Origin: Patescibacteria group bacterium
GTDB taxonomy: Bacteria > Patescibacteriota > Patescibacteriia > Magasanikbacterales > GWA2-37-8
Assembly: GCA_022710645.1 (NCBI GenBank)
Contig: JAKLGL010000001.1
Coordinates: 274,712 to 338,711, forward strand
Direction of reading: 5' to 3'
Length of the DNA: 64,000 nt
Within the stretch, counting starts at the first letter, position 1, and every line of letters begins with the position of its first letter. The notes beneath the pieces were generated by a model. That model worked only from the letters and a program-made list of their open reading frames with translations, was not told the origin of the DNA and did no database searches. A program made the translations under genes and the position numbers. Below are positions 9,081 to 63,218 of this stretch, one piece after another.

Positions 9081-9483
9081 AATTTACAATTTCTTTATCA
9101 TTGCCTTTTCTGCTAGTCATGCCTATTTTTTGAAATATCATAGTTAGCTCCTGTGCTTCTGACCAGTATATCCTGAGTTCTTTTTTTAAATCTTCGTTAC
9201 AAACTGCTAACATTCTTAACCAGTGTTTTGTTTCTTGCGCTTCTTTTTTGCAAATAAATATTTTGTTTATAAAATCTTTTTTTGATGCCGCCCCATTGGC
9301 TTCCATATAATTAGCTCCCACACTAGTAGCTGATCGAATAATTTGACCAATCAAAGATTTGTTATATTCATTAATTCTTATTCTTTGACACAATTTAATA
9401 ATGTCTTCACCAAACTTTGCAGTCCTCTCTTCCAAATCATAACCAGATACCATATTTTGAAAATTAAAATATTGAAAATTCAA
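9079..9483 (-). CDS. Four-helix-bundle protein (PF05635/TIGR02436-like, '23S rRNA intervening-sequence protein' family)
   Basis: Motif ...SATSVGANYMEANGAASKKDFINKIFICKKEAQETKHWL... is typical of the family. The track ORF starts at a TTG; the probable true start is the ATG at 9453 (MVSGYDLE...). The gene is flanked by inverted repeats. Confidence 0.6.
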   Translation of the reverse strand: MNFQYFNFQNMVSGYDLEERTAKFGEDIIKLCQRIRINEYNKSLIGQIIRSATSVGANYMEANGAASKKDFINKIFICKKEAQETKHWLRMLAVCNEDLKKELRIYWSEAQELTMIFQKIGMTSRKGNDKEIVN

Positions 9484-9510
9484 TGAAAATTGTAAATTGT
9501 AAATTTTATT
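9455..9510. repeat. Right inverted-repeat arm (family B, ATTGAAAAT units)
   Basis: Sequence 'aaattaaaatattgaaaattcaatgaaaattgtaaattgtaaatttt'. Its reverse complement resembles 9040-9080 and 22105-22140. Confidence 0.6.
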
Positions 9511-13400: not shown

Positions 13401-13586
13401 CCAAGTAATAATCGAGGCTATGCCCATAGAAATTTCTTCCGTAGTCGGCCAACCCCAAGCCAAAGCATACCCGGCAGTCAAAATCCCGCTAAAAACAAAT
13501 ACAAAAAATAACACAACCAGAAGTTTGTTTTTCTTGTTTTTTCCAAATCTGAATTTCTCCTTAATTTTCCCAAAAAAAGACGACAT
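10422..13586 (-). CDS. Polytopic membrane protein with a TrbL/VirB6-like N-terminal multi-TM domain (~330 aa) and a ~700-aa charged coiled-coil C-terminal extension
   Basis: At least 6 hydrophobic helices within residues 20-330, with a layout and Trp/Pro pattern reminiscent of TrbL/VirB6 (PF04610). The remainder is E/K/Q/A-rich predicted coiled coil. It is the first gene of the operon, with promoter at 13667-13695. Family assignment is by eye only. Confidence 0.4.
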   Translation of the reverse strand: MSSFFGKIKEKFRFGKNKKNKLLVVLFFVFVFSGILTAGYALAWGWPTTEEISMGIASIITWMLLLIAQFFIKLTVWASQLFIVIASYNNFINSQAVILGWVLVRDVVNMFFVLILLVIAFGTVLGIEQYEWKKLLVKLVFAAVLVNFSRVICGVIIDVSQVFMMTFVNGFAATAGGNVIKGLNLDTIYNLSPDQELAQKAASATDVFVTGVAAVFFSVISFFVIGAYLLVVIARVVALWTLIVLSPIAFMSSVLPNTQKYASEWWKEFNNHVMAGPILAFFFWLSFAIVGGGDSFNEVLPTDQAKRYETNALFGSTATGISQAMEWGKMASFAIAIALLITGVKKTQELGVTGASALSSAMSTAKKIATVATGVRLAGWAGEKAKGAALGITKGIAMNAPGIGGYAWMNRYEGAKTGLKRFTARSLREGGFVGEMYNRSVKNERLNKQLKGENEAWDSVLDDLSGTKANWNQKNQNERVKAYAELLKRRKEAGGIGVKENAQAWVETEAPGIMEETLAKELEGTQAGGLKQAREDRIKDQMAKLKMGEAGYVERQKELERLKSESEDYKKFTAAQQEKIAAEEKLRSESRFRTMKEETVKTKLETQQLKEEVGSRESIRELKKIEELLKQDKKFREKQNEVYRQQASAETLKMIVEDEKKLEIAKAKDEQAEKRFIPKTNEAAYWAELQSGREKSFGNLQYAELVAMSAQNANKVIELDKNKAAMPKESYERERKALLSNQAAMESVAAKNFGSDGIAAVQKSINEAYGIKYDKLDSGDAFAHQLVETARMAGEKIDLQDILDSKKVSAETDKDIEEKYGPLKDEDYDQAFAEEYGKTRDRMLLDETKKMFKIGQEKMGAESWQTVLRNNDISARAAAPSGFSHTVSIYDGTSLGKNGLAEYKLQTNKNKILEGQKYFTGPLSNKVGDLESLSGIASINSSGEMVGLDEHAQNMIIQTLRNFTFQGRIHGRLSTELLNLLDSKTGSFKNLDLGKDFVNTFEKMIENNSRSAQAVLSKIPKEVAQALSKSSEKIADAVKKGVEQGAKQQGKNKK

Positions 13587-18466: not shown

Positions 18467-18507
18467 GAGTCTATAAAGTCCTTAATGTCTGTAATGTCTA
18501 TAAAGTC
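18467..18507. repeat. Left inverted-repeat arm (family A, GACTTTAYRGAC units) flanking the second four-helix-bundle gene
   Basis: Sequence 'gagtctataaagtccttaatgtctgtaatgtctataaagtc'. Its terminal 15-mer is the reverse complement of GGACTTTATAGACTC at 18926-18940. Confidence 0.6.
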
Positions 18508-18533
18508 AAAAAATCCGCATATTGCGGATTTTT

Positions 18534-18884: not shown

Positions 18885-18945
18885 AAATTTAACTTTACGG
18901 ACTTTAAAGACTTTACGGACTTTATAGACTCACACTAGACTTCTT
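18885..18945. repeat. Right inverted-repeat arm (family A)
   Basis: Sequence 'aactttacggactttaaagactttacggactttatagactc'. Confidence 0.6.
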
Positions 18946-20507
18946 CCATTCATCTCTTCGGGTTGGGGTAAGCCCAACAGTCTCAAAACAGTCGGCGCAA
19001 CGTCGGCCAACATCCCGACCGGAGAAAGTAAACTCAAATCTCCTTCAGGAGCATCTCCGCCGGGTCCAGCCTGTCCCATCAAATCTTTACTCACAATATA
19101 AATCGGAACCGGATTGGTGGAATGTTCTTTATCCATGCCGCCGGTTTGTAAATTGAAAATTTCTTCAGCATTTCCATGGTCGGAAGTTATAACCAAAGCG
19201 CCATTTTTCAATAAAACTTTATCAACTATTTCACCTAAACACTCGTCAATGTTTTCCGCTGATTTTACCGTGGCTTCTAAGTTTCCAGTGTGTCCAACCA
19301 TATCGCCGTTGGCAAAATTAACAGCGATGAAGCCATACTTTTCTTCCTCCACCGCTTCAAGAACTTTTTTGGTTATTTCTTTTGCCGCCATCTCCGGAAC
19401 TTCGTCAAAAGAAGAAACTTTGGGAGAAACAGCTATAAACCTATCTTCTCCGGGAAACGGTTCTTCAACAGTTCCGTTCAAAAAAAATGTTATATGCGCA
19501 TATTTTTGGGTTTCCGCGACATGCAATTGTTTTAACCCGGCTTTACTAACCACTTCAGCCAAAACATTTCGCAAAACCACGGGTTTATAAGCGACTTCAA
19601 CCGGCAATTCCTTTTCATATTCGGTCATGGTAACAAAAAATAAATTATTTATTTTTTTTCGCGGAAATTTTTCAAATGCCGGCAAAACAAAAGCCTTGGT
19701 CAATTGTCTGGCTCTGTCCGGACGAAAATTAAAAAATATAACAGCGTCATTTTCCTCTATCAAGCCGACAGGTTTATCTTTTTCTGTGATCAATGTCGGG
19801 AAAAACTCCTCATCATAATTTTTTTCCGCATACGAAGAATCAATAGCTTTGAGAGGGTCTTCGTTTTTTCTTTCAGATATCCCTTCGGTCAACATTTTAT
19901 AAGTTTTTTCCGTTCGATCCCATTGATTATCTCTGTCCATAGCCCAATAACGCCCGGTCAAACTGGCTATTTTTCCTATTTTTAATTCTTTGATCTGCGC
20001 TTGTAATTTTTCCGTAAAATATTTCCCGGAATTATAAATAGAATCTCTACCATCCAAAAAAGCATGGATAAACACATCGTTTTTTAACCCGTTTTGTTTA
20101 GCTATTTTTAACAAAGCAAACAGATGTTCTTCATTACTATGAACTTTTCCACCTATCAATCCCATGATATGTAATTTTGATTTATTTTTTTTCACATGTT
20201 CCATCGCTTGCAAAAAAACAGGGTTATTCAAAAATTTCCCCGTTTCTATTTCGTTATCTATGCGAGGTAGAGTTTGATAATATACCCGCCCGGCTCCGAT
20301 ATTCAAATGTCCAACTTCGCTATTCCCCATTTCTCCAAAACTCAAACCGACTTCCGTACCGGAAGCATGCAAAGTCGCAACAGGATAATTTTTACCCAAA
20401 CGATCCAGAACCGGAGTCTTTGCCAAAGTAATGGCGTTTCCCGGGCCTTTTGGCGCCACCCCCCAACCATCCAATATAATCAATACAACTGGTCTGTATT
20501 TATACAT
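18930..20507 (-). CDS. gpmI: 2,3-bisphosphoglycerate-independent phosphoglycerate mutase (iPGM)
   Basis: Motifs DGWG, GNSEVGH (catalytic Ser), TSDHGNAEE. Length is 525 aa. Confidence 0.85.
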   Translation of the reverse strand: MYKYRPVVLIILDGWGVAPKGPGNAITLAKTPVLDRLGKNYPVATLHASGTEVGLSFGEMGNSEVGHLNIGAGRVYYQTLPRIDNEIETGKFLNNPVFLQAMEHVKKNKSKLHIMGLIGGKVHSNEEHLFALLKIAKQNGLKNDVFIHAFLDGRDSIYNSGKYFTEKLQAQIKELKIGKIASLTGRYWAMDRDNQWDRTEKTYKMLTEGISERKNEDPLKAIDSSYAEKNYDEEFFPTLITEKDKPVGLIEENDAVIFFNFRPDRARQLTKAFVLPAFEKFPRKKINNLFFVTMTEYEKELPVEVAYKPVVLRNVLAEVVSKAGLKQLHVAETQKYAHITFFLNGTVEEPFPGEDRFIAVSPKVSSFDEVPEMAAKEITKKVLEAVEEEKYGFIAVNFANGDMVGHTGNLEATVKSAENIDECLGEIVDKVLLKNGALVITSDHGNAEEIFNLQTGGMDKEHSTNPVPIYIVSKDLMGQAGPGGDAPEGDLSLLSPVGMLADVAPTVLRLLGLPQPEEMNGRSLV

Positions 20508-20529
20508 AAAAAGTTAAAAATTAAAATTT

Positions 20530-22113
20530 TTAAATCAGGCTTTTCCCTGTCATTTCTTTGGGTTTTTTCAAATTAAATAATTTTAAAATTGTCGGCGCAA
20601 CATCGGCTAATCTTCCTTTTTTTAACTGTTTTTTCTTTTTATAAAAATCATTGTTCATCAATATCAGAGGTACTGGGTTGGTAGAATGTTCGGTATCGAC
20701 TTCACCTGTTTTGAGATTTATCATCGCTTCCACATTTCCATGGTCAGCTGTCACCAACACGGTACAATCTTTTTTCAAAGCCGTTTTTATCAATCTATCA
20801 ACTTCCGTATCCACGGTTTTGACGGCCATAACTCCGGCAATCAAATCTCCGGTATGACCTACCATGTCCGGGTTTGGATAATTGACGCAAATAAAATCAT
20901 ATTCTTTTTTTTCCAAATTTTTTATCAAAATATCAGTCATTTGTTTTGAACTCATTTGCGGACACGCGACATAACTGTCCACAACTTTTGATTCCACTTT
21001 TATCCAACGATCATCACAAAAATGTTTGGCGTAACCTCCGTTAAAAAAGTAAGTTACATGGGCGAATTTTTCGGTTTCGGATATATAAAGTTGTTTCATC
21101 GGACAAAGTACTTGGGTCAAACTATTAACAACATCGCGAGAAGGAAAAGCCGTCAATACACCGGGGAGATCGGGTCCAAAATCGGTCATGGCTACAAAAC
21201 GGGTGTTTTTGGGAACGCGAGAACGACGAAAAGAATCGGGATTAACTTTTTCAAAATCAGGTTGTACAAAAGCTTTGGTTAATTGCCTGGCTCTGTCAGA
21301 TCTTAAGTTAAAGAAAAAAATCGCATCATTATCGTTTATCTTGGCAATAGCTTTATTTTTTTCAACAATCACTGTCGGTACTATAAATTCATCTGTCTCT
21401 CCCGAATTGTAAGCCAGAGTCAAAGCATCTTCCGCCGATTCAGCGGTTCGGCAACTTTTACATTCAACCAAAGCATCGTAGGCCTTTTTTATCCTTTCCC
21501 AATTTTTACCCCTATCCATACCGTAAAACCTTCCCAAAACAGTAGCGATTTTTTCATTACCATGAAATTTTTCTTTTAATAATTTCAAATGTTTTGGAGC
21601 GTCATGTTGCCCGGAATCACGACCGTCGGTAAAAAGATGCAGATAAACTTTTTGAATTTTTTCTTGATAAAAGTAATCCAATAACGCGTATAAATGCTCC
21701 GGACAAGAATGGGCGCTGTTATGGTTTGATAATAATCCTATCAAATGAACGGCGGTATTATATTTTTTTATATGATGAACAGCTTGATCAAAAGCCGGAT
21801 TTTTGAAAAAAGTCCCATCTTTGATAGCATCGGAAATATATACCGCATCTTGTTTTACCACACGTCCCGCTCCCAAATTCATATGCCCGGCTTCACTATT
21901 ACCTTCTTCATCTTTAAAAAGACCTACTGCTTCTCCACTAGCTTCAAGTTTAGTATTGGGAAAATCTTTGAGCCAACGAAAATAATTCGGCGCATTCTCC
22001 GGAGTTATCGGATTGCCTTTATTTTTTGGACTAGCTATTCCCCAGCCATCCATAATGACGAGCATGACTGGGTTCTTTTTATTAGTCGGCATACAGAAAA
22101 AACAAATTTTCAA
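20530..22113 (-). CDS. gpmI: Second, divergent iPGM paralog arranged in tandem
   Basis: Motifs MDGWG, GNSEAGH, TADHGNVEA. Length is 527 aa. Only 22 nt separate it from the downstream paralog. The track start is a TTG; the probable ATG is at 22092 (MPTNKKNPVMLVIMDGWG). Confidence 0.8.
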   Translation of the reverse strand: MKICFFCMPTNKKNPVMLVIMDGWGIASPKNKGNPITPENAPNYFRWLKDFPNTKLEASGEAVGLFKDEEGNSEAGHMNLGAGRVVKQDAVYISDAIKDGTFFKNPAFDQAVHHIKKYNTAVHLIGLLSNHNSAHSCPEHLYALLDYFYQEKIQKVYLHLFTDGRDSGQHDAPKHLKLLKEKFHGNEKIATVLGRFYGMDRGKNWERIKKAYDALVECKSCRTAESAEDALTLAYNSGETDEFIVPTVIVEKNKAIAKINDNDAIFFFNLRSDRARQLTKAFVQPDFEKVNPDSFRRSRVPKNTRFVAMTDFGPDLPGVLTAFPSRDVVNSLTQVLCPMKQLYISETEKFAHVTYFFNGGYAKHFCDDRWIKVESKVVDSYVACPQMSSKQMTDILIKNLEKKEYDFICVNYPNPDMVGHTGDLIAGVMAVKTVDTEVDRLIKTALKKDCTVLVTADHGNVEAMINLKTGEVDTEHSTNPVPLILMNNDFYKKKKQLKKGRLADVAPTILKLFNLKKPKEMTGKSLI

Positions 22114-22200
22114 TTTACAATTTTCATTGAATTTTCAATGACGTAATTTACAAAATAGCCATTGATAATTGAAAATTGATAATTGATTGAAAATTAAAAA
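22095..22200. repeat. Gene-less copy of the family-B inverted-repeat element (MITE-like) between gpmI and eno
   Basis: 'attttcaatttacaattttcattgaattttcaatga' ... 'cattgataattgaaaattgataattgattgaaaatt'. The first part nearly matches the reverse complement of 9487-9520. Confidence 0.55.
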
Positions 22201-23448
22201 TTAAAAATTCTTTAGTTCACCCTCTATCTCCATCAATCTATTGTATTTTTCAACTCTCTCAGAACGAGATAATGAGCCGGTTTTTATCATGTCCGCATTT
22301 ACCGCCACCGCCAAATCGGCTATAAAAGTATCGGAAGTTTCTCCACTACGATGTGAAACATTAATTTTATAATTGGCTGCTTTAGCCATTTTAATAGTTT
22401 CTATCGTTTCACTCAAAGTGCCTATTTGATTAACCTTGATCAACACGGCATTACCTATTCCTTGTTTAATGCCTTCGGCAAAAATTTCAGGATTAGTTAC
22501 AAAAATATCGTCTCCGACTAAAATTAATTTTTCATCGGTTTTAGCAGTTAAAATCTTCCAACCCTGCCAGTCTTGTTCCGCCAAACCGTCTTCTACCAAA
22601 ATAAGAGGATATTTTTTTATCCATTCTTCATAGATTTTAATCATCGCATCAGCCGTAATATTCTTTCCTTTTTCAAATTGATATTTACCATTTTCAAAAA
22701 ATTCAGAAGCGGCCACATCTAAACCCAAAAACACATCTTTACCGGGTTTATATCCAGCGGAAATAATGGCTTTTACAATAGTTTTTAGCGCTTCTTCATT
22801 ATTTTTAAGATGCGGAGCAAAACCACCTTCATCCCCCACCGAAGTTGCCAATTTCTCCGTTTTCAAAATTTTCTTCAAACTATGGAATACTTCAGCTCCC
22901 ATTCTGACTCTTTCGCTCATTAATTTATGTTGCGGAATAATCATAAACTCCTGAATAGACAAACCACTGTCAGCATGAGCTCCACCATTGATAATATTCA
23001 TTGTCGGTACCGGTAAAAGAAATTTATTTTCTTTAATAGAAAAAACTTTACGTAAATATTTATAAAGAGGCATTTTTGCATTTTCCGCTCCGGCACGAGC
23101 AACCGCCATAGATACGGACAAAATAGCATTAGCTCCCAATTTCTCTTTATTTTTTGTTCCATCCATTTTTATCATTTTTGCATCTATTTCTTGGATTTTA
23201 TCCACGTCCATTCCGATGATAGTTTTAGCTATTTTTTCATTAACATTTTTTACCGCTTTAAGCACTCCTTTACCTCCGTATCTTTTTCCGCCATCGCGCA
23301 ATTCCAAAGCTTCTCGACTGCCTGTCGAAGCTCCGGATGGAACTTTGGCAACACCAATAACGCCGTTTTGCAAAACAACTTTGGTTTCAACCGTCGGATT
23401 ACCGCGAGAATCAAGAATTTCCCTGGCAATTATTTTTTTTATCTTCAT
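22201..23448 (-). CDS. eno: Enolase
   Basis: Canonical enolase sequence throughout (SGETED-like [27 protein letters not shown]). Confidence 0.95.
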
Positions 23449-35581: not shown

Positions 35582-36458
35582 AATGTTTAAAATAAATAAT
35601 AACGAAGAGCTCCTGCTACTTTGCCAGGCCACCGGCAAGACCAAAGAATGGCTTTTGGCACATCCTGAATATAAAAATTTTTGGGCGCTTTTGAAATATA
35701 AACATTATCTGAACAAATTAAAAAAAGGAACTCCTGTCGCTTATATCTTGGGACATAAAGAATTTTTTAATTTGGATTTTTTGGTCAATAAACATACCCT
35801 CATCCCCCGCCCAGACACGGAAATACTCGTTGATATGACCATCAACGAAATTTACAATTTCCTCCGCCTAGGCGGACCAATTTCCAATTCATTACTAATA
35901 GACATTGGTACAGGAACAGGGTGTATACCTATTACAATATTACAAAAATTACAAGATTGTAAAATGAACACAAGTGCCATAGATATTTCTAAAGGAGCTT
36001 TAAAAATTGCAAAAAAGAATGCCAAAAAATATAATGTTGATATTAAATTTATTCAAGGTAACCTTTTAACACCCGTTGTTAAATCTCTGCAATTTCTGCA
36101 ATCTTTGAAATCTCTTCAATTCATTGTAATCACCGCCAATTTGCCGTATTTGAAAGAAGAATGGTGGAAAAAAGAACCTTCAATTCAAAAAGAACCAAAA
36201 TTGGCTTTAGTATCTGATAATGAAACAGGTTTAAATATTTACGAACAACTCTTAATACAAATCGTCATTCTAAAATCTAAAACCTTGCCTACCGGCAGGC
36301 AGGTCAAAAATCAAAAATTGTTAATCTTACTCGAAATCGATCCTCGCCAAAGCACGCAAATTTTTCCTTTAATACAAAAATACCTGCCGTCGGCAAGTAT
36401 TGAAATCATCAAAGATTTATCGGGTTTTGATCGAGTTGTTAAAATCAATTTATTGTAA
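35565..36458 (+). CDS. prmC: Release-factor glutamine N5-methyltransferase (HemK/PrmC); NPPY degenerated to NLPY; contains repeat-derived in-frame insertions
   Basis: Overlaps prfA by 17 nt. GTGTGCI SAM motif. ANLPY motif. Extra tandem-repeat and palindrome-derived segments at 36080-36125 and 36264-36304. Confidence 0.7.
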
Positions 36459-44718: not shown

Positions 44719-44794
44719 GTCATTCTGAGCGTAGCGAAGAATCTGCAAGCAAAATTATTGCTTTTTACAGATCCTTCACTGCGTTCAGGATGAC
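44719..44794. repeat. GC-rich inverted-repeat element (family C): GTCATTCTGAGCGTAGCGAAGAATCTG ... CAGATCCTTCACTGCGTTCAGGATGAC
   Basis: Imperfect 27-nt arms; most arm differences are transitions, several giving G.U wobbles in RNA. Lies between the methyltransferase stop and the band-7 start. Confidence 0.6.
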
Positions 44795-44798
44795 ATTT

Positions 44799-45548
44799 TT
44801 AGTTTGCCTTTGCTTGTATAAACAGAAACAACGGGAATTCCGCTCTAGCTCTATCAATCGCTACTGCCCTCGGTCCTGGTGTGGTCTTCTTTTCCGATAC
44901 CCACTCCTCTATTCTTTCTACCGCAAAACCGGATTTTTGTAAATGTTTGAAATAATATTGAAGCGGACGATGAAAAGAAGATGTTGTTTCGCTGTTTTTT
45001 TCTCCCGGATGCATCACAATTTTATTTTTACTTTCGGATAAATACGCATCCATGCGACGATATTGAATTTTATTTTTTTCATCCCAATCCCAACTGCTTT
45101 TTCCCGGAATTCTGAAACATGGGTGGTTCATAACTATGTATAGATTTCCGCCTTTCTTGATTTTCTTGGCGCACTCTTTGATAACCAAATCCGCCTTTTC
45201 CATATTTTGCAAAGACAAGACCATGATTATTTTGTCAAAAGTTTCTTTGAGAAAAGAAAGATTGTCAGCCGAACCGACTTGATAAGAAATGCTTTTGGGA
45301 GAGTTTTCTTTCGCCAAAGTTATCAACTTTACACTATTATCCACGCCATATAGTTTTGCTCCGCCTTTTTCCAACTCCCGACTGAAAAATCCTTGTCCGC
45401 AACCCAAATCCAAAATCTTTTCTCCGGGTTTAGAAGTTATCAAACGCAACAAATTCGGTAAAATCAAATCTTTTTGATAAGTACCGTCAGTGTTTAAAAG
45501 TTCATTATACCAATCCGCGCTTTTGTTCCAAGAAGTGTCGTTCGCCAT
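44799..45548 (-). CDS. Class I SAM-dependent methyltransferase
   Basis: Motif I ILDLGCGQGFFS. Confidence 0.7.
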   Translation of the reverse strand: MANDTSWNKSADWYNELLNTDGTYQKDLILPNLLRLITSKPGEKILDLGCGQGFFSRELEKGGAKLYGVDNSVKLITLAKENSPKSISYQVGSADNLSFLKETFDKIIMVLSLQNMEKADLVIKECAKKIKKGGNLYIVMNHPCFRIPGKSSWDWDEKNKIQYRRMDAYLSESKNKIVMHPGEKNSETTSSFHRPLQYYFKHLQKSGFAVERIEEWVSEKKTTPGPRAVAIDRARAEFPLFLFIQAKAN

Positions 45549-45594
45549 AATTTTAGATTTATGATTTATGATTTTAGATTGATAAGTTATTTAT

Positions 45595-45707
45595 GTCATT
45601 CCCGCGGGCCAACGGCCTCCCTTTGGGAAAGACGGAAACCTGCCTGCCGGCAGGCAGGTCCAGTGGCTATCTTACTTTTCCTGGATCCCCGCCTTCGCGG
45701 GGATGAC
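45595..45707. repeat. Composite palindromic element (family C variant): GTCATTCCCGCG ... CCTGCCTGCCGGCAGGCAGG ... CGCGGGGATGAC
   Basis: Terminal inverted repeats GTCATYCCCGCG. Internal perfect 20-bp palindrome at 45639-45658. Two additional GC hairpins. Confidence 0.6.
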
Positions 45708-45711
45708 AACT

Positions 45712-46425
45712 TTAATAATTAACCGCTAGAAATGAAGCGACGATTCCTGCGGTTTCTCCACGTAAAATATTTTTTCCGATTCCGGTTATTTTCATATTAT
45801 TTTCTTTGGCTAAAACCAATTCTTCCGTACTCCAACCGCCTTCCGGACCGATAAATAAACCGACATTTTTAGAATTTCTGTCAATTGTTTTTCCCGGAGA
45901 AAATTCCGTGCCACCCGGAGCAAAAAATAAATTTACATCATTATTTTTTACTTCCAAAATCGCTTCTTTAAATTTTATCATCTTTACGACTTCCATCAAA
46001 GTCCCTCGCCCGGAAAGTTCACAAGCTTCTTTACTTATTTTATTCAGTCTTTCCAAATTAATTCCGGTTTTGATAGTTCTGTCGGTAATTATCGGCACCA
46101 ATTTATTCACCCCGATTTCCGCCGCTTTTTGCACAGCGAGTTCAAAATTCTCGCGTTTCAAAACAGCTAAATACAATATAATATTTCTACCTTCGGTTGA
46201 AAATTCTTTGTATTCCACAACTTTCAAAATCAATTCTTTTTTATCAATACCTTCCAATACACAAATAATCTCCTTGCCTTTTCCGTCACAAAGCGCCAAT
46301 TGTTCGCCTATTTTCAATTTCAAAACTTTTACAATTTGATGGACAATCTCTTTATCGGACAATTTGATTGATTTTTCTTTTTCATCCAAAACCAAATTGG
46401 ATAAGAAAAAACGATGAATTTTCAT
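45712..46425 (-). CDS. rsmE: 16S rRNA (uracil1498-N3)-methyltransferase
   Basis: RsmE-like N-terminal PUA-like region. C-terminal LRGETAGIVA motif. Confidence 0.7.
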   Translation of the reverse strand: MKIHRFFLSNLVLDEKEKSIKLSDKEIVHQIVKVLKLKIGEQLALCDGKGKEIICVLEGIDKKELILKVVEYKEFSTEGRNIILYLAVLKRENFELAVQKAAEIGVNKLVPIITDRTIKTGINLERLNKISKEACELSGRGTLMEVVKMIKFKEAILEVKNNDVNLFFAPGGTEFSPGKTIDRNSKNVGLFIGPEGGWSTEELVLAKENNMKITGIGKNILRGETAGIVASFLAVNY

Positions 46426-47681
46426 ATTTTTCTTTTACTTCTATTAAATTTTATCGCAAACCGATGCGCTTCATCGCGCACGCGGATGAGTAATTCTTGA
46501 TGACCGAAAACCCAAGCCACAAATTCCGGATTTTTTTCACCTAAGATAAATTCGTTTTTCTTTCGCGCCGGTCCTTTGGCAATACCCACAACCGGAAGAG
46601 AAATGTTTTTTTCTTCCAAAATAGTTTTTACCGCATTCACTTGTCCTCTGCCCCCGTCAATCAATAATAAATCCGGTCTCCCCCATTCACTGTGCGTAAA
46701 ACGACGAGAAATAATTTCTTTGAGACAGTCTACATCGCTCTGACCGACAACGCCTTTGATATTAAATTTTTTATATCCGCTTTTTTTGGGGATCCCGTTT
46801 TGGAATAATACCAAACTCCCCACTTTGTCGCTACTGCCCAAATTGGAAATATCATAACCCTCAATTCGCGAATATTTTTCTTTGAGTTTTTTACCCGCGT
46901 CTTTTTCCAAAAATAATTCGTCTTCAAAAAAACTACGATTGATGAGCGTGATGTCTTGAATTTTTTTCAATTGATAAAGTTGATTTCGCAAAAGCGTCGC
47001 TTGTTCAAAATTTTCTTTTTCCGATGCTTGTTTCATCTTTTTTTCAAAATCTCGCATCACTTGTTTTTTCTGACCGAGCAAAAACAAAGTTAGAGGTTTG
47101 ATAACTCTGCTTTCATATTCCTCTGCGCTGATTTCACCCGTACATACGCCCAAACATTGATCCAATTGATAATAAAAACAAGGCTTGTCGCTGTTTGGTT
47201 CGCAGTCCGACCAAAAAAACATTTTTCGCAATACTGTCATTGCTTCTTTGGTATTGAGTCCCGGATACGGACCGAAAATCGCTTTTATTTTACCTTTATC
47301 AATTTTACTTAATTCATGCTGACGTAAAGATTGCAACTTTGGAAATCTGTCTTTGGTCAAATATAGATAGTTCCAACTTTTGTCGTCCTTACCCAAAACA
47401 TTATATTTGGGATTAAACTTTTTGATATAATCGGCCTCCAAAATAATCGCTTCCAAAACCGACTCGGTTTCCACCCAAGCGATATCCTCTACTTGATAAA
47501 TCATTTCTTCTATCGGACGAGGATTTCTTTGTTTTTGCCAATAACTTTTTACTCGTTGTTTTAACGAGGTGGCCTTGCCAACATAAAGCAAAGCGTTGTT
47601 TGCGCCATAAAACAAATAAACTCCGGGGTTATCGGGTAAATTGGCTAATTTTAGAGATATTTTTGACTCGACTCTTGACAT
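46422..47681 (-). CDS. uvrC: Excinuclease ABC subunit C, short form lacking the C-terminal (HhH)2 domain
   Basis: GIY-YIG (PGVYLFYG...LYVGKA). C-terminal endonuclease region (RIEGYDISN...RDEAHRFAI). Length is 419 aa. Confidence 0.75.
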   Translation of the reverse strand: MSRVESKISLKLANLPDNPGVYLFYGANNALLYVGKATSLKQRVKSYWQKQRNPRPIEEMIYQVEDIAWVETESVLEAIILEADYIKKFNPKYNVLGKDDKSWNYLYLTKDRFPKLQSLRQHELSKIDKGKIKAIFGPYPGLNTKEAMTVLRKMFFWSDCEPNSDKPCFYYQLDQCLGVCTGEISAEEYESRVIKPLTLFLLGQKKQVMRDFEKKMKQASEKENFEQATLLRNQLYQLKKIQDITLINRSFFEDELFLEKDAGKKLKEKYSRIEGYDISNLGSSDKVGSLVLFQNGIPKKSGYKKFNIKGVVGQSDVDCLKEIISRRFTHSEWGRPDLLLIDGGRGQVNAVKTILEEKNISLPVVGIAKGPARKKNEFILGEKNPEFVAWVFGHQELLIRVRDEAHRFAIKFNRSKRKI

Positions 47682-47703
47682 TTTAGCTAAAATATGCTAT
47701 TAT
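47675..47703 (+). promoter_or_regulatory. Consensus sigma70 promoter (TTGACA-17-TATTAT, extended -10)
   Basis: Shares the spacer core GCTAAAATATGCTA with the promoters at 13857 and 48764. Its -35 overlaps the uvrC start codon on the opposite strand. Confidence 0.55.
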
Positions 47704-47757
47704 ATTCTGTTATAGATCTTTATAAATTTGTTTCCCTGAATAAGGGAGGAGGAAGTT

Positions 47758-48027
47758 ATGGATGAGGTTTTGAAAAAAATTGTCTCCGAAGATACGGAGA
47801 TGAAAAAGCTCTTTGCCGAACTTTATGTCGATATGGGGGCTGAAAAAGCCTGCAATGATCTCCAGATCACCGAGGAAAATAAAAAGAGCATTATTCCGAT
47901 TCCGGTGAAAGACCAGATTACCGAGATAATAAAGAATCTGGCATGGAGAAACATCAATATTGCCGAAGAGGAAGTGATTAAATTTGCCAAAGAATTCGGC
48001 AGAGAGAACTTCAACTTTCTCAAATAA
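47758..48027 (+). CDS. Small hypothetical protein (89 aa)
   Basis: GGAGG RBS. Own promoter, and a terminator at 48035-48062. Confidence 0.4.
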   Translation: MDEVLKKIVSEDTEMKKLFAELYVDMGAEKACNDLQITEENKKSIIPIPVKDQITEIIKNLAWRNINIAEEEVIKFAKEFGRENFNFLK

Positions 48028-48034
48028 CCTCCAC

Positions 48035-48062
48035 CCGGGCCCTATGCGGCCCGGTTTTTTTA
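48035..48062 (+). terminator. Rho-independent terminator
   Basis: CCGGGCC-CTATGC-GGCCCGG followed by a T-run. Confidence 0.65.
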
Positions 48063-48683
48063 TTTCAAAACATCAGTCAATTTGATAGCCCAAGCGCCGA
48101 GAGATTTTCTATCATCCAAATTTACATCATCCGGACAAATAATATTTTTAGGAAATTTAATTCTTTTGACATCCAAAACCATATTTCCTCTTTCTTCTTG
48201 TTCTTCTTCCCATTTATCCAAAAGATTACGATTGATGTCGCCAAAATTAAAATTTATGTACCTGATAGTTTTTTTGATAGCATCCAGCAAAACATTATGG
48301 CTTGCAGTGCGAGATTTTCCCAATCTTTCATGTTCTTCCTGATATTCCTTAATATCATCTTTTGAATTGCTCTTGGTCATACCCACAGCTTCATGTTGTT
48401 TCTTTAAATACATTATAGTTTTTTTATAGTCCGAAGTTTTTTTGATAATTTCAGCCAGAAGTCTGTTGACTTCTTCTTTTCTTTTTTCAAATTCAGCCAA
48501 TTCCTGTTCATCACCACTTTTTAATTCCGCATCCATAATCATTTTTTTAACACTCACCAAATGTTTAGTTTCCGGAGATTGATCTATATTTTCATATTTT
48601 TCCTTATTCATACATTCTTGTGCATGACTGGTGATTTCACCTTCTTCTCCAAATTGACTTCGAAACTCTCTTAGAAAAGACAT
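48060..48683 (-). CDS. Hypothetical protein (207 aa), charged and coiled
   Basis: Intact ORF with no recognisable family. Confidence 0.4.
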   Translation of the reverse strand: MSFLREFRSQFGEEGEITSHAQECMNKEKYENIDQSPETKHLVSVKKMIMDAELKSGDEQELAEFEKRKEEVNRLLAEIIKKTSDYKKTIMYLKKQHEAVGMTKSNSKDDIKEYQEEHERLGKSRTASHNVLLDAIKKTIRYINFNFGDINRNLLDKWEEEQEERGNMVLDVKRIKFPKNIICPDDVNLDDRKSLGAWAIKLTDVLK

Positions 48684-48763
48684 ACTATAAAAAAATTAAA
48701 ATTTACTCTTTTAATTTACCACATTTTCGGCTTTTTTTCAAGTATTTCGTAATGTAGCGACTA

Positions 48764-48792
48764 TTGACAAAATCGTTAAAATATGCTACAAT
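48764..48792 (+). promoter_or_regulatory. Consensus sigma70 promoter (TTGACA-17-TACAAT, extended -10)
   Basis: TTGACA at 48764-48769, TACAAT at 48787-48792. Confidence 0.55.
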
Positions 48793-48824
48793 TCTTTGTT
48801 GTTCCTTAAAATTTTAACTGCTTT

Positions 48825-49076
48825 TTGGAGGATATCATGAGAAATGCAATAGCTCTAGCTATCGCTACTGAGCCAAGAATTGAACAAACTATCAAACTTC
48901 TCGTCTTGAAAATCTTAACGGAGAAAATATCTCCAAAAGATGTTGCCAAAGTAGTTGAGGCTTTGGTCAATTTATTCAAACGGAAAAAAATCGACGATAT
49001 TACGCAGGATGAAGTTCAAAAAATCGTCGAGGAGTGGACTGTGGTCAAAATCAACCGAATATTGAAGGGAGGCTAA
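48825..49076 (+). CDS. Small hypothetical protein (83 aa)
   Basis: GGAGG RBS. Terminator at 49109-49132. Confidence 0.4.
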   Translation: MEDIMRNAIALAIATEPRIEQTIKLLVLKILTEKISPKDVAKVVEALVNLFKRKKIDDITQDEVQKIVEEWTVVKINRILKGG

Positions 49077-49108
49077 AATGCCGAATCCTCCCAAAAGAAA
49101 AACTTATT

Positions 49109-49132
49109 AGCCCCGCTCAGGGGCTTTTTTTA
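49109..49132. terminator. Rho-independent terminator shared by convergent genes
   Basis: AGCCCC-GCTCA-GGGGCT followed by a T-run. Confidence 0.6.
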
Positions 49133-51715
49133 TTTCAAAACTCTTTTTAAGTAAGCCCCCGTATAACTCCCTGCTTTTCGCGCGACTTCCTCCGGTGTAC
49201 CGCTGGCAACTATTTTTCCGCCTTTATCCCCGCCTTCAGGTCCGAGATCTATTATCCAATCCGCGCATTTGATAACATCCAGGTTATGTTCAATCACCAT
49301 CACCGTATTTCCAACAGATACCAGACGTTGTAAAACTATCAATAATTTTTTTACATCTTCATAATGCAAACCAGTAGTCGGTTCATCCAACAAATAAAGT
49401 GTTTTGGTATTTCCCGGACGCGCCAATTCACGCGACAGTTTGATACGTTGTGCCTCTCCGCCGGAAAGTGTGGTGGCAGATTGTCCGAGAGTCAAGTAAT
49501 CCAAACCGACTTCGTTGAGTATTTTCAATTTATCGTGAATAAACGGAATATCTTTGAAAAATTGTTCCGCTTCCGCCACAGTCATGTCTAGCACATCGGC
49601 AATATTTTTTCCTTTGTAATGCACTTGCAAAGTTTCGGAAGTAAAACGCTTGCCTTTGCAAACATCACAAACCACTTCTACACTTGGTAAAAAATGCATT
49701 TCAATTTCCAGCACTCCTTTACCTTCGCAATGTTCGCAACGTCCGCCCGGCACATTAAAACTGAATCGACTGTTTTTATAACCGCGCATGCGCGCTTCCG
49801 GAGTAGTAGCAAAAATTTCTCGAATATGATCAAAAGCTTTGGTGTAAGTGGCGGGATTACTGCGTGAAGTGCGACCGATAGCGCTCTGATCGATAGAGAT
49901 AACTCTTTCTATATATTCGGTGCCAGTCAAATTTTTATAATTCGGTTCGTGTTTTTTTATTCTGTTTAATCTTTCAAACAACGCGCGATAAAGCACATCG
50001 TGCATCAAGGTGGATTTGCCCGAACCTGATACGCCGGTCAAACAAACAAAACGACGAAGCGGAATTTCCACATCAACATTTTTCAAATTATGTTCCACTG
50101 CGCCTTTGATTTTGATTTTTGGTGTAGAAGAATCCACACTGCGATATTTTTCGGGAATTTCTATTTTTTCCTCCCCGCGCAAATATTTTCCAGTCAGAGA
50201 TTTTTGCGTGGAACCCAACACTTTACAATCAAATTCTTTGGATTTCCCTATTTTATTATTCAGCATGTCTTGCAAAGGTCCGGAATAAATCACTTCTCCC
50301 CCGTGTTTACCGGCCATAGGTCCGATATCTACCAACCAATCGCTTTCCAAAATAGTATCTTCATCATGTTCTACTACGATAATAGTATTTCCAACATTGC
50401 AAAGATTGCGTAAAGTTTTTATCAATTGATCATTATCTTTTTGGTGCAATCCGATAGTCGGTTCATCCAATACATAAAGAGCGCCGACCAATTTAGTGCC
50501 GACTTGCGACGCTAGACGGATACGTTGTGCTTCCCCGCCGGATAATGTGCCGGCGCGACGCTCTAGTGTGAGATAATGAAGCCCGACATTAAACATAAAA
50601 TCCAAACGATTGCTGATTTCACGCAAAACTACAGCGCTGATTTCCAATTCTTTGGGTGTTAATTTTTTTGTTAAATCGTTGAAAAATTCTCGCGATTGTG
50701 AAATTGTTTGTTTGGTGACTTCATAAATATTTTTTCCACCAATTTTCACACTCAACGCGGTTTCGTTTAATCTTTTACCGTGACATTTCGGACAAACTTC
50801 TTCGGAGAACAAACTTTCTGTGCCCAAACCCGTACATTTTTCACAATAACCATAAGGACTGTTGAAACTGAATAATCGCGGTTCAATTTCGGGAAAAGAA
50901 AAACCGTCGTGAGGACAAGAATAAAGCGTAGAATAAATTTGTTCGGTTTTATCCGGATAAATTATCGTTACCAAACCGTTACTCAGATCAATCGCGCTCT
51001 CCAGCGCTTCGGACAATCTTTGTAGCTCTTCTTTTTCCGTCATTTTTTCCGCGCTGTTCAAAAACAATCTATCCGTCACCACTTCAATATCGTGTTTTTT
51101 GTTTTTTGACAAAATCAAAGTTTCTTTGAGTTCTTTATAAACTCCGTCCACGCGAACTTGCGCAAATCCGGAATTATAAAAATCATAAAGCATCTGATAA
51201 TACTCCCCTTTTCTTCCACGCACTACGGGAGACAAAATCACCAATTCTTTTATACTTTTTTTATTATCTTTGAAATTTTCAATGAGTTTGTCCAAGATAT
51301 GACTTTTGATTTCATCTGTGCTCATCCGGTCAATTTTGGTTCCACATTGCGGACAATATGGTTTGCCTACGCGCGCGTAAAGCACACGTAAATAATCATA
51401 AATTTCCGTGATAGTTGCGACTGTGGATCTCGGGTTGGCAGTATGAGCTTTTTGATCAATAGAAATAGCCGGTGACAAACCTTCTATTTCATCAACATCA
51501 GGTTTTTGCATCCCGCCCAAAAATTGTCGCGCGTAAGCGGACAAACTTTCAATGTATCGGCGTTGGCCTTCGGCAAAAATGGTATCAAAAGCCAGAGACG
51601 ATTTGCCCGAACCGGACAGTCCCGTGAAAACTATCATTTTATTGCGCGGAATTTCCAAAGAAATATTTTTCAAATTATGTTCTCGCGCGCCTTTGATAAC
51701 AATTTTTTCTTGCAT
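49130..51715 (-). CDS. uvrA: Excinuclease ABC subunit A
   Basis: Two ABC ATPase modules ([22 protein letters not shown]). Zn-finger Cys pairs. Length is 861 aa. Confidence 0.95.
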
Positions 51716-51836
51716 AATAATTGTAATATAGGAAAATGCCCTCCAGTTGGTTTACTAGGGGGGTATAGTGAAAAGTTTACTATAAAATTAACGAAAAGTC
51801 AACCGTGTTTTAATAACCAAATCCTAATGTCCAATT

Positions 51837-51940
51837 GTCATCCTGAACGAAGTGAAGGATCTGCAAAAGGCAATAATCTTTTTTACAGACCTACCTGCCG
51901 GTAGGCAGGTTCTTCTCCGCCTGAGGCGGATCAGAATGAC
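51837..51940. repeat. Composite family-C element: GTCATCCTGAACGAAGTGAAGGATCTG ... CCTACCTGCCGGTAGGCAGG ... CCGCCTGAGGCGG-ATCAGAATGAC
   Basis: Lies upstream of the uvrA start, between divergent genes. A spurious track ORF (51506-51904) translates it as ...CHPERSEGS.... Confidence 0.6.
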
Positions 51941-52011
51941 AGATTATTGACAAACTCCCCAATCTCCTATTAAATAACTTTATAAGTCCTTTATATTATT
52001 AATTTCCTATA

Positions 52012-52326
52012 TTGGAGGAAAATATGGATTGGTTAGAAAAAGCCAAAGATGAAGCCAAAAAAAATCTGGAAAAAATCCAACAGATCATCCAGGAGAGATA
52101 TGACTACAGCGAAAAAGTGGAAGAACTCCGAGAAATCTGCACAAAATCGGAAAAGGAAAAGGTTTGTAATCTTTTTTCTGATGCGGATTATTGTTTGAAA
52201 GAGTGGCAAAACGGTCCTGTTCTGGGACTGAATTCTCCAGGACTAATAATTTCAGCAGCGGAAAACTACAAAAAAACCTTGGATAAACTGATTGCAGAAA
52301 TTAACAAAGAACTTTTTCCTTGTTAA
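52012..52326 (+). CDS. Hypothetical protein (about 100 aa)
   Basis: GGAGG RBS. Probable ATG at 52024. Terminator at 52339-52366. Confidence 0.4.
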   Translation: MEENMDWLEKAKDEAKKNLEKIQQIIQERYDYSEKVEELREICTKSEKEKVCNLFSDADYCLKEWQNGPVLGLNSPGLIISAAENYKKTLDKLIAEINKELFPC

Positions 52327-52338
52327 TCCACACTTCAA

Positions 52339-52366
52339 GCGGTTCTACACAGAATCGCTTTTTTTA
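52339..52366 (+). terminator. Rho-independent terminator
   Basis: GCGGTTCT-ACAC-AGAATCGC followed by TTTTTTTA. Confidence 0.6.
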
Positions 52367-52432
52367 TTGACAAAAAACATCAATTATAATAAATTAAACT
52401 TATACTAAATAACAATTAATTTATATAAAAAT

Positions 52433-52846
52433 ATGTCAAAAAAGCTACTTTCGCTTTTCGCAATTTTCGCCTTGGTTATTCTCATGGGAGCCGGATGTCA
52501 AAAAACGACTGTTGAAGAAAACAACAGTGAAATTGATGATTTATCTGTTTTGGAAGAAGAAGATTTGACTGAAGAAAATGATAATGAACTTATTTTGTCC
52601 GTGGAAGATTTGGGAAGTGGTCAAGTAAAATTTATTTGGAATACTTCCAATAACCCGGAAGGTTATCGTATGCTTCACAGCGCGCGCAAAAACGCTGAAA
52701 ATCCTTTTTGGCAATTTGTAGGAACAAATAATGATGAAGGGATATTTTATCAAGTCCCGACTGGCACAAGATTTTTCCGCGTTTGCGAATTATTGGATAA
52801 AAAATGTGTGAATTATTCAAATGAGGTGGAACTTGAAGTAAAGTAA
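52433..52846 (+). CDS. Putative lipoprotein (137 aa)
   Basis: Signal peptide ending LILMGAGC. Terminator at 52866-52897. Confidence 0.45.
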   Translation: MSKKLLSLFAIFALVILMGAGCQKTTVEENNSEIDDLSVLEEEDLTEENDNELILSVEDLGSGQVKFIWNTSNNPEGYRMLHSARKNAENPFWQFVGTNNDEGIFYQVPTGTRFFRVCELLDKKCVNYSNEVELEVK

Positions 52847-52918
52847 ATCTATCTAAAAAAATAAAAGACACATCAAACTTGGTGTGTCTTTTTTTTGTTT
52901 TAATATTAAATACTGAAT

Positions 52919-52940
52919 ACCTGCCTGCCGGCAGGCAGGT
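52919..52940. repeat. Solo copy of the 20-bp palindrome CCTGCCTGCCGGCAGGCAGG (family-C core)
   Basis: Identical to 45639-45658. Lies between two terminator hairpins. Confidence 0.55.
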
Positions 52941-52966
52941 TGGAGATATTGTTTTAAATATCATAA

Positions 52967-52988
52967 AACCTCGGCCGAAGCCGAGGTT
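52967..52988 (-). terminator. Rho-independent terminator for the minus-strand gene ending at 53008
   Basis: AACCTCGGC-CGAA-GCCGAGGTT, with a T-run on the minus strand. Confidence 0.55.
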
Positions 52989-53007
52989 ATAAAAGGAACA
53001 AAACTTA

Positions 53008-53547
53008 TTATTCAAGCAACCATCCTGAAAATCCTTTAAAGATTTTGCTCAGAAAAACCAAGCAATCTTTAAAAAATTCTTTTCTAAAAATGGTTAACAG
53101 AATTAGAAACAGTGACTCAATGCTTAAAAAAACAAAAAGGGCAACGGTAACACTAGAGTAAGTGGCAATAGAAATACTCATCTGAAAGCCAAAAAATATC
53201 GAAAACGAAAAACTTATCAAAAATAACAAGCCAAAAATAAAGCCTATATCCGTTTCTATTTTTCTGAAATCTTGTAATCGGTCGAGAGTCTTAGTAGATA
53301 CAATGATAGTACAGTATAACAATGGTCCTGCAAATAAATCCCACCATCTGGTTATGCTGAATGACAAATCATAATAAGCATCAGAAAAAAAATAAATACG
53401 ATTTGTAGTTGGTACACTGCCTTTGGTAAAGAAATATATCCCCCAATAAATCCCAATCGGAACTGAAAATGCCAAAAAGAATTTAAAAAAAACCTTTGTT
53501 AATCTTTTCATTTTAATCTCCGGTCGTATTTGGCCCGACTCCGGCAC
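53008..53547 (-). CDS. Membrane protein (179 aa, about 5 TM), unknown
   Basis: Hydrophobic profile only. Confidence 0.4.
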   Translation of the reverse strand: MPESGQIRPEIKMKRLTKVFFKFFLAFSVPIGIYWGIYFFTKGSVPTTNRIYFFSDAYYDLSFSITRWWDLFAGPLLYCTIIVSTKTLDRLQDFRKIETDIGFIFGLLFLISFSFSIFFGFQMSISIATYSSVTVALFVFLSIESLFLILLTIFRKEFFKDCLVFLSKIFKGFSGWLLE

Positions 53548-53686
53548 TATTTCAATAAATTGTAAGGAACATAAACTAACTGCACATTATAGCACATTTT
53601 AGCCTTTTTGTCAAGATTTAAATGTGGCTAATTTAAGCCATTTTTCTAAACAAAAAACCGCCGTTTTTGGCGATTTTACTATTTTT

Positions 53687-53767
53687 GTCATTCTGAGGAG
53701 CTTAGCGACGAAGAATCTGTAAAAGCAACTATCTTACTTGCAGATCCTTCACTACGTTCAGGATGAC
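53687..53767. repeat. Family-C inverted-repeat element: GTCATTCTGAGGAGCTTAGCGACGAAGAATCTG ... CAGATCCTTCACTACGTTCAGGATGAC
   Basis: Lies just downstream of uvrB. Its arms are homologous to 44719-44794 and 51837-51863. Confidence 0.6.
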
Positions 53768-53852
53768 AACCGGTCTTATTATTCAATCCGCCTTCGCCCA
53801 AAAAGGGCTACGGACGGACAAGTATCCAATATCCAATATTTAATATTTTTTA

Positions 53853-63097: not shown

Positions 63098-63218
63098 GAA
63101 AGTCCATAAAGTCCGTAAAGTCAAAAAGAAAATTAAAAAACTTTCCCATTTGGGAAAGTTTTTTAATACTTTTTAAAAAGACTTTACAGACTTTAAGGAC
63201 TTTACGACTTTACAGACT
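63098..63218. repeat. Gene-less family-A inverted-repeat element enclosing the rplK terminator hairpin
   Basis: AGTCCATAAAGTCCGTAAAGTC ... [ACTTTCCCATTTGGGAAAGT-TTTTT] ... GACTTTACAGACTTTAAGGACTTTACGACTTTACAGACT. Confidence 0.55.

Follow-up and report, generated by a model that had tools for sequence, protein, structure and literature searches.

TGTC-tagged hairpin dimers, probably mobile DNA of the REP kind, and a separate 20-bp palindrome in a genome of the Patescibacteria

A stretch of 64,000 nt from the metagenome-assembled genome of a Patescibacteria group bacterium (assembly GCA_022710645.1, contig JAKLGL010000001.1, positions 274,712 to 338,711), here called the window, holds a set of structured palindromic repeats. 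We consider it likely, with a probability of roughly three in four, that mobile hairpin DNA, non-autonomous and of the kind known as repetitive extragenic palindromes (REPs), is present in this stretch in the form of head-to-head dimers of units with a CGTC or TGTC tag. This is a known kind of REP in a phylum that none of the papers listed by a literature search on the topic links with REPs, and there is good evidence of recent turnover. A preliminary description had treated all copies as a single family. Instead, at least two unrelated families are nested in one another: TGTC-tagged arm units, and a perfect 20-bp palindrome, CCTGCCTGCCGGCAGGCAGG, which has neither tag nor conserved flanks and is an element separate from and unrelated to the TGTC arms.

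The five copies first described, E1 to E5, were all recovered at their coordinates, and a sixth copy was found in frame within prmC. No strand is assigned to the elements unless one is given:

44719–44794: E1 (76 nt), a heterodimer of the units 44719–44742 (plus strand, ATTCT..AGAAT) and 44771–44794 (minus strand, ATCCT..AGGAT).
45595–45707: E2 (113 nt), a head-to-head dimer of the CGTC-1 type, its right unit 45685–45707 (minus strand) intact.
45639–45658: the palindrome nested in E2, flanked by A and T and missing from the orthologous dimer of relative L130.
51837–51940: E3 (104 nt), a dimer in the divergent spacer upstream of uvrA, its left unit 51837–51860 (plus strand) intact.
52919–52940: E4, a solitary palindrome (52920–52939) with flanking A and T.
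53687–53767: E5 (81 nt), a heterodimer of a long-variant unit 53687–53719 (plus strand) and a short unit 53744–53767 (minus strand).
36283–36303, plus strand: the 21-nt variant CCTTGCCTACCGGCAGGCAGG in prmC, adding TLPTGRQ in frame.

As in the initial description, E1 to E5 lie in spacers and 3' untranslated regions (UTRs). The further copy in prmC is inside the coding sequence. As had been noted, the elements are GC-rich for their host (0.42–0.73 GC, compared to 0.37 for the window). The first 13 nt of the arm match eight times in the window where 2.8 matches are expected, a number reached in none of 100 shuffles, and the 20-mer of the palindrome, allowing up to three mismatches, matches four times (the prmC copy among them) where none is expected. 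A detector for a tag followed by an AT-closed hairpin found five GC-type units in the window against 0.3 hits in total in Markov shuffles; it also reported one AT-rich hit at 22113–22142, outside the TGTC family. Furthermore, the folds of the long copies E1, E2, E3 and E5 beat those of shuffled sequences on both strands (z from -3.8 to -9.3; for E1, -42.5 kcal/mol and z = -8.8).

A TGTC unit is about 24–27 nt long and consists of an unpaired TGTC tag, a hairpin whose stem opens with AT and closes with AT, and a short tail. Five intact and three degenerate units are present in the window, and the tag precedes all five intact ones. The long copies open with TGTCAT and close with ATGACA, each arm is a small hairpin by itself, and all four are head-to-head dimers, which in E1, E3 and E5 join a T-type arm with a C-type arm. 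In E2 the intact unit reads TGTC ATCCCCGC GAAG GCGGGGAT CCA, with a stem of 8 bp and the 4-nt loop GAAG. The arm of E1, E3 and E5 reads TGTC AT[T/C]CT GA [G/A]C GNA G[C/T] GA AG[A/G]AT CTG. The nine positions of its stem, ATYCTGARC/GYGAAGRAT, comprise seven Watson–Crick pairs and two G.A mismatches; the loop is GNA (3 nt) when the inner C and G are taken as a pair and CGNAG (5 nt) otherwise; and the tail is CTG in the window, CTC being the commonest tail among units on viral contigs. This hairpin contains what we take to be the very stable GCGNAGC mini-hairpin together with a tandem G.A motif.

E1, E3 and E5 align end to end, including the spacer between the units, which in E1 holds a small hairpin AAGCAA..TTGCTT. 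Therefore, the whole dimer with its spacer is the repeated unit, not the arm alone, and the doublet is what gets copied. Two of the dimers are disrupted. The left unit of E2, from position 45595, is interrupted by an insert of about 60 nt in which small hairpins, GGCCAACGGCC and TCCCTTTGGGA, and the palindrome are nested. In the right unit of E3 the apical mini-hairpin is replaced by TCCGCCTGAGGCGGA (51916–51930), and a variant of the palindrome is inserted at 51890–51909. E3 is also read, as first observed, as CHPERSEGS by a spurious open reading frame (ORF) at 51506–51904.

The differences between arms had been described as mostly transitions, some of them preserving pairing as G.U. In E1 all five differences are indeed transitions, but they do not make G.U pairs between the arms. 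Four of them fall, two by two, on base pairs formed inside each arm (positions 6/22 and 11/17), where they compensate each other; the remaining one affects the free base of the loop. Thus, the two arms of E1 are allelic versions of one hairpin. The same variation is found at a larger scale in viral contigs of IMG/VR, at least 120 of which, with GC contents from 32% to 70%, carry the 25-nt pattern of the arm. In 151 units taken from these contigs, positions 6/22 are T-A in 95, C-G in 55, T.G in one and C/A in none, and positions 11/17 are G-C in 126, A-T in 22, G.T in two and A/C in one; the two pairs vary independently of each other. The loop base varies freely (C 61, A 51, G 25, T 14), and directly before GTC 131 units have T and 13 have C. 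This clear compensatory covariation shows that the hairpin within each unit is under selection for pairing. The preliminary description had raised the possibility of selection at the level of RNA, which the data do not show: single units are without orientation bias relative to co-directional flanking ORFs (16 in the same and 12 in the opposite direction), so no observation links the selection to an RNA sense strand.

A description which fits these elements is that of the CGTC-tagged REPs (Di Nocera, De Gregorio and Rocco 2013, BMC Genomics 14:522, PMC3733652). According to that survey, the tag is CGTC, often TGTC, with CCTC as another variant; stems of 8–9 bp nearly always open with A-T pairs, loops have 4–5 nt and CCA is the usual tail of 3 nt; most units form head-to-head dimers, many of which are heterodimers; and the elements, found in five phyla, lie mostly downstream of ORFs, some being intragenic, with no dedicated transposase found. 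Its group CGTC-1 includes dRS3 of Neisseria and RPE-6 of Rickettsia, and CGTC-4 includes RPE-4 of Rickettsia. With its TGTC tag, AT-opening 8-bp stem, 4-nt loop and CCA tail, E2 agrees with CGTC-1 feature by feature, and E1, E3 and E5 share the tag, the AT-closed stem and the dimer organisation. Also in common are the frequent heterodimers in head-to-head arrangement, the position mostly downstream of coding regions, the occurrence of in-frame copies, a likeness across phyla and the lack of a linked transposase. CHPERSEGS is the same kind of read-through product as the peptides DPGLRRDD (CGTC-1) and RHSELVSGS (CGTC-2) in the supplement of the survey. The differences, judged against the published description rather than a family consensus, are the CTG or CTC tail, the two G.A stem mismatches and the GNA triloop of E1, E3 and E5. 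[quoted passage not shown]

Recent turnover is visible at orthologous sites of four syntenic relatives (L123, L126, L129/L130 and L131), covered here by flanks of 10 kb, whose methyltransferase proteins are 84–91% identical to that of the window; the methyltransferase homologues are labelled Patescibacteria or Parcubacteria and the PrmC homologues Candidatus Magasanikbacteria. In the spacer between rsmE and the methyltransferase gene, the position of E2, the 91% relative (L129/L130) has an undisrupted head-to-head heterodimer TGTCATCCCCGCGAAGGCGGGGATCCAGG..CCACTGGATTCCCGCCTTCGCGGGAATGACA, and in the 84–85% relatives (L123 and L126) the spacer holds no element and measures just 17 nt in one and 36 nt in the other. 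Given the clean orthologous dimer in L130, E2 is best explained as such a dimer into one unit of which the approximately 60 nt of small hairpins, including the palindrome, were later inserted. The spacer between the methyltransferase gene and the gene for a Band7 protein holds a different TGTCA..TGACA hairpin dimer in each relative, at the same spot. In the uvrB 3' UTR, where the window has E5, L123 and L131 have a TGTC dimer of the ATTGCGAG type, in all three cases upstream of the same conserved terminator. The spacer upstream of uvrA is empty in L126 and occupied by other elements in L123 and L131; in L131 this dimer nearly equals the one between its methyltransferase and Band7 genes, with a few spacer bases differing. 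No palindrome is present in the L123 spacer equivalent to that of E4. Judged from these empty sites, and from sites with another subtype, copies have been gained, lost and replaced among close relatives, which bears out the mobile elements that had been among the first suggestions.

The TGTC units are also spread over very different replicons. Full-length dimers with a T-type left and a C-type right arm occur in plasmid records labelled Phocaeicola (Bacteroidota) and Planktothrix as well as in viral contigs, and plasmids of other cyanobacteria (Calothrix, Oscillatoria) give partial matches. The commonest form on viral contigs is the single unit without a partner. The 41 distinct dimers on viral contigs comprise 26 heterodimers, 10 of the T/T and 5 of the C/C type; an excess of heterodimers was considered and rejected, as 26 of 41 against about 20 expected is not significant and the set includes nested duplicates. 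According to a clustering of neighbouring genes, the units in at least 120 viral loci lie next to phage structural genes, and no transposase or nuclease family was found beside the units among the viral loci listed. One viral contig (L087, positions 3716–3790 and 9434–9750) has direct tandem arrays of up to three TGTC units with a period of about 30–49 nt; head-to-tail arrangement is termed rare for CGTC elements in the 2013 survey (PMC3733652).

How such elements would move can be approached by analogy. We suppose that they would be selfish DNA and owe their spread to an enzyme which acts in trans and whose gene is not close by. Such an enzyme would act on single-stranded hairpin DNA beside the tag, as HUH/Y1 transposases of the REP-associated tyrosine transposase (RAYT) type act on GTAG-tagged REPs, and any benefit, for instance protection of the 3' end of an upstream mRNA, would be secondary. 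A conserved unpaired tag next to a hairpin, the very stable mini-hairpin core, the lack of a target duplication at the one palindrome insertion for which the empty site is sequenced and the lack of an orientation bias point to mobilisation in trans of single-stranded hairpin DNA as the most likely mode, in parallel to the GTAG-tagged REPs and to transposition of the IS200/IS605 type. The doublets of REPs known as REPINs or BIMEs (REP doublets forming hairpins; bacterial interspersed mosaic elements), which are associated with RAYTs in E. coli and Pseudomonas (Bertels and Rainey 2011), likewise consist of two inverted hairpins and a spacer that form one long hairpin; the whole doublet replicates, its copies are intergenic and no target duplication is seen. 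However, the tag here is TGTC and not GTAG, no Y1_Tnp or RAYT gene is present in the window, and REPINs are lineage-specific and vertically inherited, whereas the same 25-mer is found here on contigs of 32–70% GC and on plasmids of Bacteroidota and Cyanobacteria.

Several points count against the reading as mobile REPs. No mobilising enzyme was found in the window, where about 50 ORFs gave no Pfam hit to a transposase or HUH protein, and the single-strand mechanism is drawn from analogy, not observed. E1, E3 and E5 depart from the published CGTC description in the tail, in the two mismatched stem positions and, as read here, in the 3-nt loop. The near-identity across phyla is unlike the lineage-specific REPINs linked to RAYTs, and a host function for the elements is conceivable.

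In a rival explanation the hairpins would be functional RNA elements, terminators or 3'-end stabilisers kept by selection, their repetition reflecting a convergent or conserved function. Their position fits this explanation. The genes around the elements are uvrB, three small genes of no assigned function, uvrA, uvrC, rsmE, a class I methyltransferase gene and the Band7 gene. E1 begins 4 nt past the methyltransferase stop codon (44794/44799) and lies 46 nt ahead of the Band7 start (44672/44719), E2 lies 4 nt past the rsmE stop codon (45707/45712) and 46 nt ahead of the next start (45548/45595), and E5 lies in the uvrB 3' UTR. The two elements E1 and E2 look as if they were within one operon; their neighbour spacing is identical, and the downstream spacing is not kept in the relatives. 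The folds are very stable, their pairing is kept by compensatory changes, and on viral contigs the units are often placed between genes for structural proteins, immediately upstream of ribosome-binding sites. However, no dimer is followed by a T tract and, other than first proposed, none of E1, E2, E3 and E5 is called terminator-like. Separate canonical terminator-like hairpins are close by, at 52863–52892, 48035–48054 and 49109–49125 as well as at the following position:

53654–53677, minus strand: terminator-like hairpin with T tract, downstream of E5, outside the repeat family and conserved in L123 and L131.

E5 is situated between this hairpin (53677–53654) and the uvrB stop codon (53853). 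On either side of E3 are divergent genes, with divergent promoters, and E4 lies between convergent genes, each with its own terminator-like hairpin; the sole terminator-like call touching an element is a weak half-stem of five pairs at the 3' edge of the E4 palindrome. Since the dimers are not terminator-like and the canonical hairpins are separate from them, the dimers are probably carried inside transcripts as 3' UTR or intercistronic hairpins. Protection of upstream mRNA is established for the REPs of E. coli, and by analogy the dimers might protect or stabilise upstream mRNA in the same way. Further arguments against a conserved RNA function are the close relatives with no element or a different one at the same site, the balanced orientation of single units, the in-frame copies in proteins and the absence of any Rfam 15 match in the window at the gathering score. 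In a permissive comparison the E1 hairpin gave only chance-level, microRNA-like hits of 24–26 bits against gathering scores of 70–84. A hammerhead-like reading of CUGA..GAAG was likewise rejected, as part of the core is missing and there is no Rfam hit. All in all, we regard an origin of the repeats as functional RNA as unlikely.

Two further observations concern the surroundings of the dimers. The terminal ATGACA of E2 forms the -35-like hexamer of a promoter-like site at 45599–45571 on the minus strand (ATGACA, 17 nt, TAAAAT) which faces the methyltransferase gene; ends of elements could thus create outward promoters. Furthermore, the TGTC elements of the window are all grouped near uvrA, uvrB and uvrC (44.7–53.8 kb), which may be coincidence. 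The 2013 survey reports that intragenic REPs of other phyla often lie in uvrA, uvrB and other genes of repair and replication (PMC3733652).

[quoted passage not shown] The inverted ends, the size of 76–113 nt, the polymorphism for presence and absence and the flanking T and A would suit such elements. However, the T and A belong to the palindrome and no direct repeats flank any copy; the prmC insertion of the palindrome, for which one empty site is sequenced, came without duplication; and no IS with these ends was found in the window, in the relatives or in the viral loci listed (at least 120). In addition, single units are the commonest form on viral contigs, so the basic module is the hairpin unit and not a pair of ends. 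The first label, a REP/MITE-like structured repeat family, is supported.

Recombinases are known to target REPs in Pseudomonas and E. coli as well as dRS3 of Neisseria. In a further explanation the hairpins would have their main biological role as landing sites, conserved as targets of IS110/IS1111-family bridge-RNA recombinases or of phage integrases. Insertion of IS110-family elements into REPs is described in the literature (PMC3733652; PMC12288879; bioRxiv 10.64898/2026.03.19.712850), and relative L126 has an IS110-family transposase gene (PF02371, positions 6255–7556) between uvrC and rsmE. The flanks of this gene (5830–6250 and 7560–8000) carry another inverted-repeat family, AGAAGGGACA..CGTCCCTTCT and GGGAGGTGGGG..CCCCACC, and not TGTC units, which speaks against landing sites; it is also the ground on which this gene was rejected as the mobiliser. 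As the window holds no IS110-family gene and a role as target leaves the multiplication of the hairpins unexplained, we find this explanation highly improbable. Finally, a local duplication, chance palindrome or assembly artefact, for which the confinement of the window's copies to 36–54 kb (about 17 kb) might speak, is already refuted by the distribution data: shuffle controls rule out chance; far from being limited to this stretch, the motifs are shared by no fewer than 120 viral contigs, by plasmids and by members of many phyla, with the palindrome in cultured isolates such as Winogradskyella echinorum KCTC 22026 and the arm on plasmids of Planktothrix and Calothrix; and the locus appears to recur in independent assemblies, since NCBI GCA_035454185.1 and an ENA assembly encode the identical RsmE protein and agree in the order and spacing of the genes, the spacer DNA itself not being aligned.

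Besides the tagged dimers, for which the reading as mobile DNA of the REP kind is retained, the 20-bp palindrome needs separate consideration. Of the insertions, the palindrome copy in prmC is the only one for which the empty site is sequenced. The PrmC protein of the window has a 7-residue insert, TLPTGRQ, missing from its closest homologue (L169), where the site reads TCTAAAA|TCAAA; in the window it reads TCTAAAA[21 nt]TCAAA, an exact gain of 21 nt between A and T without target duplication. Across genomes of this lineage, one short variable region of PrmC has at least four different palindromic in-frame inserts (alignment including L169 and L170). Among the orthologues are found TLPTGRQV, placed at another site, the peptides SACRQAG and PVCRQAG, in which the palindrome is read in other frames, an insert of 23–25 residues (SSRDLQGRGD..YARND) that is a 69-nt TGTC dimer, and another palindrome, TPVKSGEAGLPSAEFNGV (TPVKS..FNGVK). 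The length of PrmC among close homologues ranges from 269 to 321 residues.

Thirty-five viral contigs contain the exact 20-mer, as do at least 120 genome loci from roughly ten phyla, cultured isolates included. Its hosts comprise many classes of Patescibacteria, Bacteroidota, Omnitrophota, Planctomycetota, Gamma- and Deltaproteobacteria, Bdellovibrionales, Thermodesulfovibrionales and Chloroflexi, and the flanks are unrelated between copies. The 21-nt variant was found at no fewer than 120 metagenome loci, with A as flanking base in 78 and T in 75 of the 125 matches listed. When an open frame spanning at least 40 codons on each side was scored, the 21-mer lay in one about as often as random positions did (57 of 121 and 352 of 605), which is consistent with in-frame insertions of some 7 residues each, whereas the 20-mer was depleted (29 of 116, compared to 378 of 580 random positions). 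Judged from this contrast between the two lengths (odds ratio 2.7, p = 4e-4), genes tolerate the variant with a length divisible by three but not the one that shifts the frame.

Targeting of tRNA genes by the palindrome was rejected as a general rule, since ARAGORN found a tRNA at only 2–3 of 167 excised sites against 5 of 835 random ones, and several D-loop-like cases seen by eye are partial 5' tRNA copies adjoining an intact gene. In two genomes (L203, about 3600–3800; L256, about 4400–4560) the palindrome lies in such a partial copy directly upstream of the intact gene. In a viral contig (L158, 2239–2330) ARAGORN predicts a tRNA-Met of 92 nt in which the 20-bp palindrome makes up the long extra arm. 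A tendency to sit at the tips of existing hairpins (26 of 163 against 172 of 1627, p = 0.048) is weakly supported.

Searching the literature by sequence and peptide, we found no relevant paper containing the arm, the palindrome or their typical junk peptides. The lack of a tag and of conserved flanks, the identity across phyla, Nitrospirota-like lineages among them, the precise insertion between A and T and the ORF occupancy of the 21-mer, together with the cross-phylum identity of the TGTC units, lead us to the tentative proposal that CCTGCCTGCCGGCAGGCAGG may represent an undescribed class of ultra-small mobile DNA, its bare hairpins being copied by some trans-acting mechanism that is shared among hosts or carried by phages. 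This proposal is possible rather than probable. Should the palindrome prove to be a mobile element in its own right, it would count as one of the smallest on record.

The in-frame copies recall the Rickettsia palindromic elements (RPEs), which are palindromic in-frame inserts in housekeeping proteins, as are the prmC insert TLPTGRQ and the 69-nt dimer of the orthologue; the in-frame palindrome of the window differs in being 21 nt long, tag-less and identical in many phyla. The AT-rich mitochondrial genomes of fungi and algae carry mobile GC clusters and double-hairpin elements, which are scattered, short, GC-rich palindromes, nested and sometimes intragenic. This is a resemblance only, as they belong to another domain of hosts and have no sequence relationship with the elements described here.

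The window and its relatives hold further repeats. A third small repeat family is represented between the uvrB stop codon and E5:

53789–53820, no strand assigned: member of the family CCGCCTTCGCCC..GGGCTACGGACGG.

This GC-rich family, CCGCCTTCGCCC-N-GGGCTACGGACGG, recurs in spacers of the source genome and its relatives, including the one upstream of uvrA (L123, about 2895–2935; L131, about 5360–5400), and is sometimes nested within AT-rich inverted repeats of the CCCAATG type. Two genes for 23S rRNA intervening-sequence proteins (PF05635; 9079–9483 and 18534–18884, both on the minus strand) are each bracketed by AT-rich inverted repeats with short heptamer-like motifs, AATTTTCAAT.. at 9040–9090 and 9455–9510 and TAAAGTC.. 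at 18470–18510 and 18890–18935. Inverted repeats of the same motifs occur without a PF05635 gene at 63099–63203 and 22096–22218, and these repeats look like another family of hairpin-bounded cassettes. At 789–9050, 10422–13586 and 18930–22113 (all minus strand) are ORFs of 2753 and 1054 residues without a Pfam match and two paralogues of cofactor-independent phosphoglycerate mutase in tandem.

In practice, the elements are a source of spurious small ORFs (peptides of the CHPERSEGS and VIPAKAGI type) and make housekeeping proteins, PrmC for example, vary in length. Of the large superfamilies of REPs there are two, one of them being the CGTC-tagged REPs, for which the survey of 2013 found no mobilising enzyme (PMC3733652). 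The genomes of Patescibacteria are very small, one of the relatives being a single contig of 906 kb, and turnover of hairpins in such genomes narrows the search for the mobiliser. If repeat load were correlated with the genes present in each of these minimal genomes, this could indicate what mobilises the hairpins.

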